From positions 24,799 to 88,798 of IMG/VR virus record IMGVR_UViG_3300033070_000552: a stretch of DNA of 64,000 nt, one strand, 5' to 3'. This DNA is from a virus (lineage: Duplodnaviria > Caudoviricetes). This document shows positions 24,544 through 64,000 of this stretch, one piece after another. Under the pieces are notes generated by a model. That model was not told the DNA's origin, ran no database searches, and saw only the letters and a list, made by a program, of their open reading frames with translations. Each line of letters starts with the position of its first letter. Positions within the stretch are counted from its first letter, which is position 1. The translations under genes were made by a program, and so were the position numbers.

Positions 24544-25380
24544 TTATGCGGTCTCGGCGGCCTTGGGGAGCGGGTTGATATGCCGCGTGTTGGAGTCGGC
24601 CTGGGCGAAAATCTTGCTCTTGTTCTTGTTGAACTCCGCGACGGACATGTTGGCGATATCGTCGCTGGAGAACTGGCCGTTGACGCCGGTCCCCGCCCCG
24701 GTCTGCGACTGCGATCCCGATCCGCCCTTGGGCTTGACCGCCGCCGCCCACGCGGTCTTGGCGATCTTGTCGGCGACGAACTCCTCGGGCGTCATGGGGT
24801 TACCCTTCGCGTTGCGGGGCGAGGTCTTGGTGATCGGGTCCTGGATCATAAATGCGCCGGGCACGGCGGGGTTGTCGACGAACCAGTCGGCGAGCCGCAG
24901 GGCCGCGATGATCTGGTCGGCGGGGACCTCGGTGTGCTTGGGGCACTCGTTGGTGAGGAAGTTGGTGAGCCGCATGTCGCGGATGCGGGCGTCGGCCTCC
25001 GCCTTGGCCTTGGAGGCCTCCTGCTGGGCGCTGGCGAGATCGTTCTGGGCCTGGTCGAGAAGTTTCTTCAGCTCGCCCTGTTCGAGCAGTCGCTTGTTCT
25101 CTGCCTCGGCCTTCTCCCTCTTGAGCTTGTCGAGTTCCTTTTTGTCCGCGTCGCTCACGGTGTTCTTCGAGAGGTCCGCGATCTTGGCGTTGAGTTCGGC
25201 AAGCTGGGCGTCGCGGGCGACAAGTTCGTCCCGCAGCCGCTTCTCGTTATCGCTCGGGCCTCCGGGGCCGGGAGCGGGGGGATCGCCTTCGGGGCGATCA
25301 AATCGGGAGGTGATCGATCCCGCCACCAGAAGCATGGCGAGAGCGGAATCGGGGAAGCGACGGCGACGACGGTTTTTCAT
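24544..25380 (-). CDS. capsid scaffolding protein
   Basis: Charged coiled-coil, PKGGSGS near the C-terminus, directly before the MCP. Confidence 0.75.
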   Translation of the reverse strand: MKNRRRRRFPDSALAMLLVAGSITSRFDRPEGDPPAPGPGGPSDNEKRLRDELVARDAQLAELNAKIADLSKNTVSDADKKELDKLKREKAEAENKRLLEQGELKKLLDQAQNDLASAQQEASKAKAEADARIRDMRLTNFLTNECPKHTEVPADQIIAALRLADWFVDNPAVPGAFMIQDPITKTSPRNAKGNPMTPEEFVADKIAKTAWAAAVKPKGGSGSQSQTGAGTGVNGQFSSDDIANMSVAEFNKNKSKIFAQADSNTRHINPLPKAAETA

Positions 25381-28010: not shown

Positions 28011-29951
28011 TCAAACACCGCCAGCCTTACCTCGGCCTCGCTTGGTTCTGCCCGAGGTGGCCCCTGCGGTGGTTGGCTGTCCGCTTGCCCCGTCGGTCTG
28101 GGGGGCTGTTCCACTCCCAGAATTTTTCCCAGAGTTTGGAGTAGTCCCATTGGTCTTTTCCTTGGTGGCCGGTCCCGAACCGATCCCGGTGTCGCTGGCG
28201 GTCGGGATATCTCCGCTCTCGCCTCCATCCTCCATCGGCTGGCCCGTGAGAGGATCGATCGGCCCCGTCGGCTCGGGGTGGGTATCCATCGCGTCGCAAA
28301 GCTCGCCCGCAAGCTCCTCGGGGATGCCAAGGGCGGCGATGAGCATGTCGGGCGTGAGCGACGACTCCCGCTTCATGCCCATGAGCGACTCGGTGATCGT
28401 CGGCGACGTATCGAACATCGCGTCCACGTCGTCCACGTACTCCTTGTGCGGGCCGAACGGGTCGATCTTCTGCGAGAGGGCGATCGCTAAACGCCGCTTG
28501 AGCCGTGGGGGAATGAACGAGGCCGATGAAAGCTCGGAGTTCTGCGCGATCAGATCGTCGATCGTGAACACGTCGAACTGCCGGTTGTAGTGGGTCCGCT
28601 TGTGCGTGTCGTCCCCGGGGTAAATCTCCATCGCCACGAGCAGCTTGTTCTCGACGACCTCGACGGTCTCGGCGATCTTGGTGAGCAGCGTGTAGAGGGC
28701 TTCGAGGTCCCGCTTCTTCTTCTCGGCGCTCTCGGCGACGTTCTTCCCCATCGGCGACATCGAGACAAGCTCGAAGATCGCATTCTTGATCTCGTCGCGG
28801 CGGGACATGAGCGACGCGGCCTGCGACGGATCGCCCGCAATGATCCCGACCTTCGAGTTGGGGTTGGGCAGCACCATCGTGTTTCCAGCACCCTTGTCCG
28901 AGCCCGTGATGTTCTCGGCGGTCTCGCCGGTGATGTACCGCTGCGAGAAGGTGTTCTGGTAAAGTTCCTCGTCGAGTACCGACCCGAGGTTGAAGTGCTG
29001 GCGGTTGAGGTCGGCGATGTCCTTGGACGGGAACGGGAAGATCACGCGGAAGAACGGGCATTGCCCGAATAGATGATCGCCCCGCCCGACCTCGATAAGC
29101 CTCTGCTCGTTCTTCTCGGTCACGATCAGCCGGTAGAGCACCCAGTTCGTTTGTGTCCACTCGCGGTAGTAGATTTGGGTGATCGGCGGCGAGGTGATCG
29201 ATCCCTTGGTGACGACGGTTTCCTCGATCACGACCCGGACGATCTCGCCGCCCGACTCCTCAAAGTCGGCGACGCACCTTGGATCGATCCTCACGATGTA
29301 CGGCCTGCCCTTGTGCTTGGGGTCGACCTTGTTGATCTGCGCGGCCGTCATCTTGGTCTTGCCGTCGGTCGCGAGAATGTTCGCGGCGTCGTACCCAATC
29401 CACGCCTCGGTGTACTTGAGCCCGTCGAGGGTCATCTCGTCGATGTTTTTGTCGAGTTCGATCCGCTCGATCTCGGCGACGATCGCTTCGTCCTCGGGCC
29501 GCACGGGATCGACCCCGAGCACGTAGCTCCAGAACTTGTCGATGATCGGCTTGACGAAATTGACATAGCTCGCCATGCGAAGACGGCGGGAATACTTCTC
29601 GGTCTTGAGCGTGGACTCGGACTTGTTGACGATCTGCGACGCGGTGGGAACGGCCTTGGCGGCGAGGAACGGATCGGCCCGCTCGTTCTCGTGCTCGATG
29701 AGGATCATCTGGCCCTTGTAGTCGGCGGCGAGTCGGTACATGGGGCCGCCGACGTACGAGGCGTCGAGGAAGTTGAACATGAGCTTGCGATCCCGGAGGT
29801 TCTCAAGCGGGAACATCGGGTAGCCGATATCGGTAAAGACCGGGGTCGGCGACGATGGGGCCGCGTCGGGCTTGGAGTTGCCTGGCGATGGGGACATCGC
29901 GGGATTGAACGGGGGCGAGAAGCTCGTGAGGTTCGCGGTGCGAGTTGCCAT
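28011..29951 (-). CDS. portal protein
   Basis: 646 aa between terminase and gp7-like gene; YSRRLRMASYVNFVKPII; acidic tail. Confidence 0.8.
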   Translation of the reverse strand: MATRTANLTSFSPPFNPAMSPSPGNSKPDAAPSSPTPVFTDIGYPMFPLENLRDRKLMFNFLDASYVGGPMYRLAADYKGQMILIEHENERADPFLAAKAVPTASQIVNKSESTLKTEKYSRRLRMASYVNFVKPIIDKFWSYVLGVDPVRPEDEAIVAEIERIELDKNIDEMTLDGLKYTEAWIGYDAANILATDGKTKMTAAQINKVDPKHKGRPYIVRIDPRCVADFEESGGEIVRVVIEETVVTKGSITSPPITQIYYREWTQTNWVLYRLIVTEKNEQRLIEVGRGDHLFGQCPFFRVIFPFPSKDIADLNRQHFNLGSVLDEELYQNTFSQRYITGETAENITGSDKGAGNTMVLPNPNSKVGIIAGDPSQAASLMSRRDEIKNAIFELVSMSPMGKNVAESAEKKKRDLEALYTLLTKIAETVEVVENKLLVAMEIYPGDDTHKRTHYNRQFDVFTIDDLIAQNSELSSASFIPPRLKRRLAIALSQKIDPFGPHKEYVDDVDAMFDTSPTITESLMGMKRESSLTPDMLIAALGIPEELAGELCDAMDTHPEPTGPIDPLTGQPMEDGGESGDIPTASDTGIGSGPATKEKTNGTTPNSGKNSGSGTAPQTDGASGQPTTAGATSGRTKRGRGKAGGV

Positions 29952-61633: not shown

Positions 61634-62329
61634 CTAGTGGGCGGCGTCCCGCATCCGGCGGCTGGCCTGCCGGTGGACGATCGCCGGGTCGGCCACGTCA
61701 GGCATGAGATCGGGGATGCAGACAAACCGGGGGTCGAGTTGACCGACCTTGAGCCCGCGTTGCTCGTGCTCGGCCAACACCCGCCCGAGCACATCCTGAT
61801 CGAGGTCCAGGGGCGATGATCGCTGGGCGGCGACCCACGCATCGAGCAGATCGGCAACCGCCTGGCGATCGCGTCGAAAGAGAATCGTTCCCGAGAGGCA
61901 CGCGGAGTTCACAAGCGGCCAACGGCGGCGCTGATCGGGGTCGGGCCGCAAGACCGCGATGTCATATTGGGCGGCGAGGCTATCGATCGGAGAGAGATCC
62001 GCACGCACACCGATCTCCGCATCGGCATCGAGCCAAAGCATCGGCGAGGCGTGGTCGTCGAACCGCTCGCGAAGATACTCGGGCTTGATCGCGCAGTTGG
62101 CGACCCACGATCCGCGAGAGGGCCGGGCCTCGACGCGGTAGTTGGTATGGAAGGACGGGAACCCGATACGCGAGTGGAGCGATCGCAGAAGGTGCGCGTC
62201 CATCACTTCGCGGTACTGCGGGGTGTAGAACGAGACGACCTGGAGCAAGTAGGGGCCGGGCGAGATGATCGACACCGTACCGTCGGGATTAGGGCGTAGC
62301 GACGAATGAACCGAATGGGGAATGGGCAT
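61634..62329 (-). CDS. nucleotide-diphospho-sugar transferase-like protein
   Basis: VVSFYT, SWVANCAIKP, MLWLDADA (DXD), LSGTILF, LDQDVL; ATG 3 nt after CGGGAACGTCT. Confidence 0.75.
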   Translation of the reverse strand: MPIPHSVHSSLRPNPDGTVSIISPGPYLLQVVSFYTPQYREVMDAHLLRSLHSRIGFPSFHTNYRVEARPSRGSWVANCAIKPEYLRERFDDHASPMLWLDADAEIGVRADLSPIDSLAAQYDIAVLRPDPDQRRRWPLVNSACLSGTILFRRDRQAVADLLDAWVAAQRSSPLDLDQDVLGRVLAEHEQRGLKVGQLDPRFVCIPDLMPDVADPAIVHRQASRRMRDAAH

Positions 62330-62379
62330 GGGAGACGTTCCCGGCATTCGCCCAATCCCAAGCGGATCAACGTCAGGGC

Positions 62380-63420
62380 TCATTGATCGAAACCCCTGGT
62401 GGGATCTCCGAACTCGACATTGATCTCACCGCACGCCGCCACGGCCTTCCGCCAATCGCCCTTCACGAACACCAAAACGTTTTGGTGGGTCTTGCCGAGC
62501 TTGCGGCCCGAGACAAATTGTTTGGAGGCGCGAATCGGGAGCGAGCCCAGCGACGTGACCAAGATCGCCTCGTTGTAAAGCCTGAGCCCAGCCGACTCAA
62601 ACGCCGCGATGGTCTCGCTCACGAGATTGAAGTACGGGCCCTCGGGCGAGCGAACGTCACCCACCACAAAGCACGCGAACCGATCATCGGCCAGCATGGA
62701 GCATGACTCAGCGATGATCTTGCGATATGCTGGAAGGAAATCCTTGGGTGCCATCGCCGAAAGATCACGCGGGTCGTCGCTATAGACTTCGAGATCGAAG
62801 TACGGCGGACACGAGAACACAAAGTCGTACGCGCCCTTGGCAAGCTGCCGAACTTTGGTTGAATCGCCGGTGATCCAGCGTGGACGAGGATTGGACTTGA
62901 TCACAATCTCCCCCGCCTGATCCTCGTTGGCCTTGATCTGGCGGACGTTGAGATCGATCCCGGTGTATCGTCTCCCAAGCACCGACGCCACGATCCCACG
63001 AACCGACCCGCCCGCAAATGGATCAAGGATCGCTCCGCCGATCGGGCAGAACCACCGATAGGCCAATTCACAAAGCACCGGATCGAAAATCGAGGTGCCC
63101 GAGCCATCCTCGGGATCGACGGCCATATGAAGATCGGCCCGGGCGAACTTACCATCGGGGCCGAGGGTTGATGCCCGCATCAACCCTCGGCCCGGCGCGG
63201 TGGGCGACTTGCGGCCCGCGTTGAGGATCTTTCGCGAGGTGTCGTCCTTGGACGACACCTCGCGAACCCCTTTCACCAACGTGAGGTTTTTGATGTACTT
63301 GGGCGAGGATTTGGTCTTAGGGCCGCCTATCCAGCAACCACCACCACCACCAGGAGGCAAATGCGGTTTCACTTTAGCGGGCACGCTGTACTCCCCTCGC
63401 ATGATGTCCTGGCCAAACAC
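62380..63420 (-). CDS. DNA methyltransferase, catalytic C-terminal part of a split gene
   Basis: TSIFDPVLCELAYRWF, ILDPFAGGSVRG, FSCPPYFDLEVYS, GKTHQNVLVFVKG. Confidence 0.88.
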   Translation of the reverse strand: MFGQDIMRGEYSVPAKVKPHLPPGGGGGCWIGGPKTKSSPKYIKNLTLVKGVREVSSKDDTSRKILNAGRKSPTAPGRGLMRASTLGPDGKFARADLHMAVDPEDGSGTSIFDPVLCELAYRWFCPIGGAILDPFAGGSVRGIVASVLGRRYTGIDLNVRQIKANEDQAGEIVIKSNPRPRWITGDSTKVRQLAKGAYDFVFSCPPYFDLEVYSDDPRDLSAMAPKDFLPAYRKIIAESCSMLADDRFACFVVGDVRSPEGPYFNLVSETIAAFESAGLRLYNEAILVTSLGSLPIRASKQFVSGRKLGKTHQNVLVFVKGDWRKAVAACGEINVEFGDPTRGFDQ

Positions 63421-63445
63421 CCGACCCGACCCGACCCGACCTGAC
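63421..63445 (+). repeat. pentanucleotide SSR (CCGAC)4 plus one imperfect unit
   Basis: ccgacccgacccgacccgacctgac. Confidence 0.9.
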
Positions 63446-63451
63446 GCTTAC

Positions 63452-64000
63452 TCATATCGGCTTCCCTCGCCCATCGCCCCGTTGCTTTTTGGAATAATCG
63501 CACGCGGGCCTGGGCGATCCGCCGGGCGAGACCTTGGACCTTGGACTGCGCCGAGCTTGTCCTTCATCCATTGGTGATCCTTGTACGCCCGCTTGTCTGT
63601 TTGTTTCGGTCGGTCGGTCGGTCGGAGTCATGGCCGCCTGATCCGCGTAGTTCTTCTGGCGGTCAGACGGACCGCCAGAAGAACTCTCAACCCATACCCC
63701 GGCCCCTCGCCCGAGTTCACTTTTGATCCCCAGCGAGAGCCACGCCCGCTTGCGGTCCTGCCAATACCCCGAGCGAGCATCGAGCACCGAGAACGGCGGC
63801 ACCACAAACCGCTCGCGAAGCTGGTTCGATAGCTTGACCTGAGGTTGATCGAGCCCGCCGAGCAACGCGGATATCTCATCAGTCGTAAACCCCAACTCAA
63901 TGTTCGAGAGATCGCCCAACGATCGGATCTCCTGGCTGAGCAAATCCATGTCCCACTCGGCAATCTCGTTGGTCTTGTTGTCGGCGATACGAAGAGCGGC
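63452..64000 (-). CDS. ParB-like N-terminal part of a phage methyltransferase (5' end off the window)
   Basis: ALRIADNKTNEIAEWDMDLL; LRERFVVPPFSVLDARSGYWQDRKRAWLSLGIKSELGRG. Confidence 0.8.
   Translation of the reverse strand, partial: AALRIADNKTNEIAEWDMDLLSQEIRSLGDLSNIELGFTTDEISALLGGLDQPQVKLSNQLRERFVVPPFSVLDARSGYWQDRKRAWLSLGIKSELGRGAGVWVESSSGGPSDRQKNYADQAAMTPTDRPTETNRQAGVQGSPMDEGQARRSPRSKVSPGGSPRPACDYSKKQRGDGRGKPI
63607..63625 (+). repeat. tetranucleotide SSR (CGGT)4.75
   Basis: cggtcggtcggtcggtcgg. Confidence 0.9.

Follow-up and report, generated by a model that had tools for sequence, protein, structure and literature searches.

Switching of methylases by changes in repeat number is textbook knowledge for the Type III systems of bacteria. 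Phase-variable Type III mod methyltransferases (phasevarions) have been described in Haemophilus, Neisseria and Moraxella (PMC6828955, PMC6902483). In phages, earlier reports of repeat-driven switches comprise a few homopolymer cases only: T2 and T4 have homopolymer contingency loci (bioRxiv 10.1101/2025.10.21.683753), and poly-G tracts occur in the receptor-binding proteins of Campylobacter phages (Sorensen et al. 2021, cited in the same preprint) and in the adenine methylase gene bpm of Bordetella phage BPP-1 (Liu et al. 2004, also cited there). According to that preprint, the bpm tract has never been studied as a switch. Fusions of the ParB-CTPase fold with N6_N4 methyltransferases, on the other hand, are enriched in phages and prophages (Kaljevic et al., PNAS 2025, PMC12704722); that paper makes no mention of splits, frameshifts or repeats, and our literature searches found no paper on repeat switching in ParB-methylases. 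Here we describe a minus-strand ParB/methyltransferase gene, at positions 62380-64000 of a 64,000-nucleotide (nt) stretch (hereafter the window) of the Caudoviricetes record IMGVR_UViG_3300033070_000552 (positions 24,799 to 88,798 of that record), which is probably a translationally coupled, naturally two-cistron operon with a frame switch driven by slippage in a short tandem repeat.

An earlier note on this DNA, made from the letters alone, had likened the locus to the Type III phasevarions. What holds of this analogy is that a non-triplet tetramer or pentamer lies in the 5′ coding region of a methyltransferase, with the number of units setting the frame, and so ON or OFF. What does not hold is the restriction partner, as neither of the two flanking genes encodes a restriction subunit, and the methylase is an orphan not adjacent to a res gene. 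Unlike the chromosomal genes of bacteria, moreover, the gene in the window belongs to a phage, its ParB-associated enzyme with a non-permuted fold and a CPPY motif is not of the Type III mod family, three repeats occur in a multi-cistron layout, and the likely role is self-protection of the phage rather than regulation of host genes. With bpm the locus shares a slippage-prone tract in a phage-encoded methylase (a C8 run at 29922-29929 of AY029185), but in bpm the tract is a homopolymer that falls within motif I, and the methyltransferase is a different one, with neither a ParB half nor coupled cistrons. Membership of bpm in the present family was ruled out, since only 29 residues around motif I align. 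Phage contingency loci in general also feature slippage-prone repeats in phage genes, with frameshift heterogeneity as a form of bet-hedging; these are, however, homopolymers in genes for receptor-binding proteins, agt and rIIA, whereas the methylase operon of the window combines tetramer, pentamer and heptamer repeats, in a pattern that recurs across a whole metagenomic protein family. Finally, the order of a ParB fold followed by a DNA methyltransferase is that of the fusions of PMC12704722 and of phrog_498, but the parts are here separate coupled cistrons matching phrog_15396 and phrog_12517. The combination of three such repeats in a multi-cistron ParB/methylase operon, the occurrence in nature of the predicted ON allele, and the family-wide concentration of repeats in one linker are new.

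The window is the last 64 kb of a single 88,798-bp contig, and position 64000 is the contig end. Inspection of the sequence and of its open reading frames (ORFs) shows two cistrons. ORF-A (63452..64000, minus strand), the ParB-fold and tail cistron, enters from the contig end with its 182 3′-terminal codons in the window and stops at TGA 63454-63452; its putative 5′ ParB_N part, with the true N-terminus, would lie past the contig end. The part in the window has no Pfam ParB_N match, and profile searches relate it to the ParB-like families phrog_15396 and phrog_620 and also to phrog_498. Identity over 77 nt to a ParB_N-positive gene (C1:441-1922) suggests that an N-terminal ParB domain precedes it. 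ORF-B (62380..63420, minus strand), the catalytic methyltransferase cistron, comprises 346 residues from GTG 63420, with ATG 63402 as a further in-frame start candidate, and includes the conserved segment FGQDIMRGE (S4, 63391-63417), the S-adenosylmethionine-binding motif I DPFAGG (63007-63024) and the catalytic motif IV CPPY (S-CPPY, 62800-62811). The two domains are not joined in one polypeptide here, as TGA 63452 and TAA 63448 part them in two frames. At the coupling junction ATGAGTAA (63448..63455, minus strand), the ATG at 63455-63453 that starts the catalytic cistron overlaps the TGA of ORF-A as ATGA, and TAA 63450-63448 closes the catalytic frame. By inspection, AGGGA is found 7 nt ahead of ATG 63455, and no purine-rich ribosome-binding sequence precedes GTG 63420. 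As assembled, the coupled ATG opens a dead-end ORF of 28 residues only (63369..63455, minus strand, ending at TGA 63371-63369). The earlier note had described this overlap, the dead end and the separate catalytic ORF, and the minus-strand sequence confirms all of them.

Between the coupled ATG and the FGQD motif lies the proposed frame switch, a pentamer tract (GGTCG)4.6 (63419..63441, minus strand) of 23 nt of perfect repeat, which Tandem Repeats Finder scores as 5.4 copies at 95% over 63419-63445. This is a non-triplet coding repeat whose unit number sets the frame: with 4.6 units, as assembled, the catalytic gene is out of frame with the ATG. The prediction that loss of one unit or gain of two would restore the frame is borne out by computation, the former giving an ORF of 356 residues that begins MSKRQVGSGRVFGQD, the latter one of 361 residues. 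According to Tandem Repeats Finder, only three tandem arrays with a period below 6 exist in the window, namely this pentamer, a tetramer (CCGA)5.0 (63606..63625, minus strand), and (GGT)5 (63337..63351, minus strand), an in-frame triplet repeat which encodes Gly5 at a place where relatives often have poly-G. To the two simple-sequence repeats recognised previously a third frame-changing one has to be added, the heptamer (GTCCAAG)2.4 (63530..63546, minus strand). Three of the five non-triplet repeats of the genome are found within 207 nt at this locus. Neither a tetramer tract of at least 20 nt nor a pentamer tract of at least 23 nt arose in any of 300 first-order Markov simulations of the 88.8-kb genome; the heptamer by itself is within chance (49/300 simulations).

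Natural length alleles were sought by comparing assembled contigs, not reads, of independent metagenomes. A 151-nt contig from activated sludge of a separate study (X1) covers 63343-63498 with no substitutions and exactly five letters fewer at 63419. This is the predicted ON allele, one pentamer unit shorter in an otherwise identical sequence. Across the tetramer, X1 (334 nt over 330 positions) and a riverine metagenome (X2, 151 nt over 147 positions) both show no substitutions and an excess of 4 nt, from which their allele would be (CCGA)6. Tract length is thus polymorphic among otherwise identical sequences, in low-depth contigs of independent studies. Exact-flank, variable-gap scans of the Joint Genome Institute (JGI) metagenomes and of IMG/VR gave no further pentamer alleles.

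Homologs of the catalytic ORF number more than 8000. Among them are fusions of 540-600 residues, arranged as ParB; S1; sequence that varies; SPGGSPRPA...RGDGRGR (S3); a second, short variable part; ARTFGQDLMRGEH (S4); then the core, beginning SGTSIFDPVLCE (S5). Many others start just before S4. In the window, the near-invariant segment S1 (PPFSVLD...YWQDRKRAW...SELGRG; 63704..63799, minus strand; alignment A1) marks the end of the ParB half, and S3 (SPGGSPRPA...RGDGRGKPI; 63455..63529, minus strand; same alignment) is the tail of ORF-A, directly followed by a stop codon in nearly all relatives. The closest relative (71% identity) consists of three cistrons joined by ATGA and GTGA overlaps, with identical junction DNA in three independent samples, and the same layout, with a ParB gene, a 41-residue ORF and the methylase, is seen on the 50-kb contig of a relative at 54% identity. 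A survey of 80 IMG/VR loci yielded 53 non-redundant ones with both S1 and S5; reading frames in the linker were judged from the frames of the motifs and from ORF continuity, as chaining of tblastn high-scoring segment pairs was too noisy there. Uninterrupted homologs, for which a search had been suggested, do exist, 24 of the 53 loci being fused and open, almost all with short linkers of 171-303 nt. The remaining 29 are interrupted, and among loci with linkers of at least 304 nt interruption is found in 29 of 31. Within the ParB and catalytic domains themselves, no interruption was seen in the 80 loci.

At the S3/S4 junction of 13 relatives, the upstream stop overlaps or abuts the catalytic start as ATGA, GTGA, ATGnnTAA, TTGnnTAA or TAATG, and the catalytic cistron starts 8-12 codons ahead of FGQD. 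The ATGA at 63452-63455 is one of a series of stop/start overlaps kept in relatives, as in a translationally coupled split gene. The junction CCGATATGA is common to the window and L004, and the window alone among the loci examined has both overlap types together (ATGA and ATGAGTAA), so that ribosomes coming from either of two upstream frames stop at most 5 nt past the start of ORF-B. A stop/start-coupled layout of two or three cistrons is the norm in this clade and occurs without repeats, e.g. in L001 and L004; the view that the repeats had caused the split had to be given up. In PHROGs, the fused protein is phrog_498, and the halves phrog_15396 and phrog_12517 are separate families. A peptide MA(M/I)HNDPMQRK... 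that lies between S3 and S4 in three relatives (L014, L030/L034 and L061), in a frame other than that of S4, may be another small coupled linker cistron.

Repeats are concentrated in the interrupted linkers of this family. Non-triplet repeats were counted from thresholds of at least 8 for homopolymers and of at least 10, 14, 15 and 17 nt for dinucleotide, tetramer, pentamer and heptamer repeats, respectively. Interrupted linkers contain 29 repeats in 15.1 kb (1.92 per kb), fused linkers one in 5.7 kb (0.18 per kb), and the rest of the same loci 26 in 264 kb (0.099 per kb), so that repeats are about 20 times as dense in interrupted linkers as in the remainder of these loci (binomial p = 1.6e-22). 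At least one repeat is present in 16/29 interrupted and 1/22 fused loci (Fisher p = 1.9e-4), a comparison in which linker length and subfamily are confounders. Behind an ATGA-coupled ATG, L042 carries (AGGC)15 and L007 carries A8. Each puts the frame off by one unit, relative to S4 in the case of L042, and in L007 a ninth A (A9) would yield MKKKQPARTFGQ. Since the tracts of the window, L042 and L007 all lie between the coupled ATG and FGQD, three lineages have put different repeats in the same slot. Scans for alleles of the L042 tetramer returned L042 itself only, and no further length alleles from JGI metagenomes or IMG/VR. Immediately behind SELGRG and behind GEHVVG, poly-G of 8-13 is a recurrent feature. 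In five relatives (L013, L022, L025, L042 and L073), a poly-G of 9-12 sits exactly 91 nt after the first base of PPFSVLD and encodes a Gly run after SELGRG, its position being kept and its length varying.

The tetramer and the heptamer affect the tail of ORF-A. S1 and S3 are in the frame of ORF-A, and between them, flanked by the tetramer and the heptamer, lies a segment S2 (RAYKDHQW-MKDKLGAVQGPR; 63531..63591, minus strand), identified by comparison with L001-L003, which is legible in the catalytic frame only, where an ORF is listed at 63448-63567, and not in the frame of ORF-A as assembled. Differences in S2 from the closest relative are all synonymous in the frame of S2 itself. The S1 frame gives way to that of S2 at the tetramer, which is one base longer than the 63607-63625 first assigned to it, and the S2 frame to that of S3 at the heptamer, where the window is 7 nt shorter than L001 and an additional unit brings the frame back. 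Their offsets (+4 and -7) cancel as assembled, and ORF-A therefore stays open with 23 residues out of frame. Loss of one tetramer unit had been noted to leave a single TAA between the halves. Such a loss does shift ORF-A into the catalytic frame, but it then ends at TAA 63450-63448, and fusion by a change of the tetramer is ruled out by frame arithmetic; what tetramer loss does instead is to restore the ancestral frame of the short conserved segment S2. One tetramer unit more makes ORF-A end at a TGA overlapping the ATG of an MKDK ORF, which is the three-cistron layout of the closest relative, and one tetramer unit fewer together with one heptamer unit more gives a single frame through S1, S2 and S3.

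The complementarity of tetramer and pentamer that had been pointed out before also appears in the predicted RNA minimum-energy fold, in which the two tracts pair (z = -2.45, with 5/200 shuffles as stable). In this fold (63395-63650, minus strand), a bulged tetramer-pentamer helix encloses about 165 nt and takes in codons 6-12 after ATG 63455. If formed, such a helix could make translation of ORF-B depend on ribosomes reading ORF-A.

ORF-B matches PF01555 with 34.3 bits (cut-off 26.7) in the motif I region only, and the families phrog_12517 and phrog_498 (E = 4e-74 for the latter). Structure comparison shows its catalytic core to be a non-permuted class I amino-methyltransferase fold, with PrmA, TrmN and Trm11 as the nearest solved folds; sequence alignment to the beta-class DNA methylase 2ZIE is confined to motifs I and IV, in swapped order. 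The ParB fusion and the annotations of relatives point to DNA as the substrate. Codon substitutions against the closest relative, L001 (nonsynonymous rate dN 0.19, synonymous rate dS 3.2, which is saturated, dN/dS approximately 0.06), show strong purifying selection on ORF-B. For a fused homolog, an AlphaFold2 model based on 24 sequences is confident in the ParB domain and the core, and predicted local distance difference test (pLDDT) values are about 73 for the S1 helix and mostly below 50 for the linker at 144-344, too low to place S1-S4 relative to the catalytic domain. The linker is thus probably a flexible tether.

The contig end provides information on the genomic context of the locus. 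The last 77 nt of the contig are exactly those of C1:1381-1457, part of a ParB_N + N6_N4_Mtase gene that is intact and lies where the contig begins, and C1:1-428 is 87.6% identical to 61916-62343 of the window; the contig end is an assembly branch point formed by this 77-mer. Two alternative ParB-methylase cassettes are present on the contig, an intact beta-class one at the start (ParB_N+N6_N4_Mtase, L086:441-1922, minus strand) and the split, repeat-bearing one at the end. In the likely source run, word depths are 15.6-18.8 for shared backbone pieces, 12.6 for the studied cassette and 3.9-5.1 for minor variant pieces. As a hint from contig depths, this suggests two alleles of one locus in the phage population and not a tandem pair. 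In our reading, the phage genome is circular or continuous, its population contains two methylase cassettes as alternatives, and the assembler opened it out so that each end of the contig bears one of them; the missing ParB N-terminus of ORF-A would then be the shared one.

Taken as a slippage-driven switch, which we hold to be probable, the operon would work as follows. An orphan phage DNA methyltransferase would be made as coupled cistrons, ORF-A with the ParB fold and a long disordered tail, followed by ORF-B. Slipped-strand mispairing at replication would alter the number of pentamer units, and this number would decide whether ribosomes starting at ATG 63455 reach the catalytic domain, 3.6 or 6.6 units being ON (356 or 361 residues) and the 4.6 units of the assembly OFF (28 residues). 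Tetramer and heptamer would change the reading frame of the ORF-A tail and the site of its stop, both reachable stops being situated within 5 nt after the start of ORF-B. Orphan methylases shield phages from restriction and expose them to methylation-dependent nucleases, so that a reversible, heritable switch would allow hedging: the probable gain is that progeny carrying the methylation evade restriction-modification and those lacking it evade methylation-dependent restriction. The layout, the frame arithmetic, the length alleles in nature, the repeat enrichment of the family and the purifying selection on ORF-B are observed; we infer initiation at ATG 63455, the reversibility and rate of switching, DNA as the substrate, and the selective benefit. 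Of the original proposal of an ON/OFF methylation switch in a phage, the placement of the pentamer, the ON allele and the convergent repeats of the family speak for what was claimed; what has to be corrected is that the repeats do not cause the split.

Several points weigh against such a switch. The X1 and X2 contigs are of low depth (2.5-4), and the alleles are differences between contigs of separate samples, not within one population. A relative diverged by about 4% (X3) shows 3-nt differences only, one of them in the (GGT) repeat, where its contig is 3 nt shorter, and no 4- or 5-nt length change among the output listed; an OFF configuration is therefore able to persist. With 4.6 and 5 units, the tracts are short and may slip at modest rates. 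Whatever the repeat length, translation of ORF-B could begin at GTG 63420 or ATG 63402. Relaxed constraint is suggested by the conserved linker peptides S2 or S3, which the window and the X1/X2 alleles read out of frame, and the alternative intact methylase cassette in the population may make the studied one dispensable.

These last observations are the substance of the main rival explanation, in which recurrent null mutations accumulate in a dispensable accessory gene and the repeats are neutral in a linker of low constraint, their slippage inactivating the methylase, and at times reactivating it, without selection for a switch. Predicted disorder of the linker, scrambled S2 and S3, an OFF state common to the window and to X3, and the intact second cassette are all in keeping with this, and yet we consider it unlikely, given that repeats occupy the same slot after a coupled start in three independent lineages, that they are enriched about 20-fold, that ORF-B is undecayed with all 346 codons open and a dN/dS of about 0.06 against L001, and that both reachable stops of ORF-A sit at the ORF-B start. 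We regard it as distinctly unlikely that the gene is simply a constitutive split gene, with ORF-B translated from GTG 63420, from ATG 63402 or by re-initiation, and with repeats that vary the leader or linker only. Such a gene would need no repeat, just as splitting at this junction is the norm without one, and GTG 63420 does open an uninterrupted ORF; however, the position of GTG 63420 serves as a start in none of the relatives, all of which begin 8-12 codons upstream, coupled to the preceding stop, the purine-rich AGGGA stands before ATG 63455 and nothing comparable before the GTG, and a start at ATG 63402 would delete the conserved FGQD motif.

A fused ParB-methylase might also be obtained without any change of DNA, by programmed ribosomal frameshifting or transcriptional slippage, a thought encouraged by the conserved peptides that lie in different frames in many relatives. 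The locus has no programmed -1/+1 frameshift site: inspection of the sequence preceding TGA 63452 found no slippery heptamer of the form X XXY YYZ, a single shift cannot join the halves because both frames meet a stop (TGA or TAA) within 7 nt, and the junctions have the shape of stop/start overlaps. Tetramer and pentamer repeats are not known as slippage sites of polymerases or ribosomes, and joining of the frames in expression is very improbable. As for wrong tract lengths in a gene that is really intact, repeats are a classic site of assembly errors and the end of the contig, a 77-mer branch point, is at a distance of 550 nt. Against the assembly indel named in the earlier note as a possible refutation, a second, independent assembly of the likely source run gave an identical 1747-nt contig across all repeats, the assembly words are longer than the 20-23 nt of the tracts, and the stop/start junction keeps two cistrons at any tract length. 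An artefact of assembly or sequencing is hence extremely improbable.

Beyond the switch proposed for the window, it is tempting to speculate that the disordered linker is an evolved multi-site contingency region in a widespread clade of phage ParB/methyltransferases, and as such a general device for epigenetic bet-hedging, although we put this forward tentatively and with some doubt. Lineages would have independently installed poly-G, A8, (AG)9, tetramers, pentamers and heptamers at the same junctions, and progeny would differ both in the production of the catalytic subunit and in how the ParB tail ends. If true, the device would hedge against both restriction-modification and methylation-dependent restriction. 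In the output of gene callers, such operons will usually appear as broken or as unrelated small ORFs.

ORF-B is flanked by the ParB half and, downstream, by a glycosyltransferase-like gene (window 61634-62383, minus strand), of which a second version, 87.6% identical, is found at C1:1-428. A motif CGGGAACGTCT at approximately 62333-62343 is situated 3 nt before ATG 62329, and because of this the glycosyltransferase-like gene probably starts at ATG 62329 (MPIPHSV...) and not at ATG 62383.

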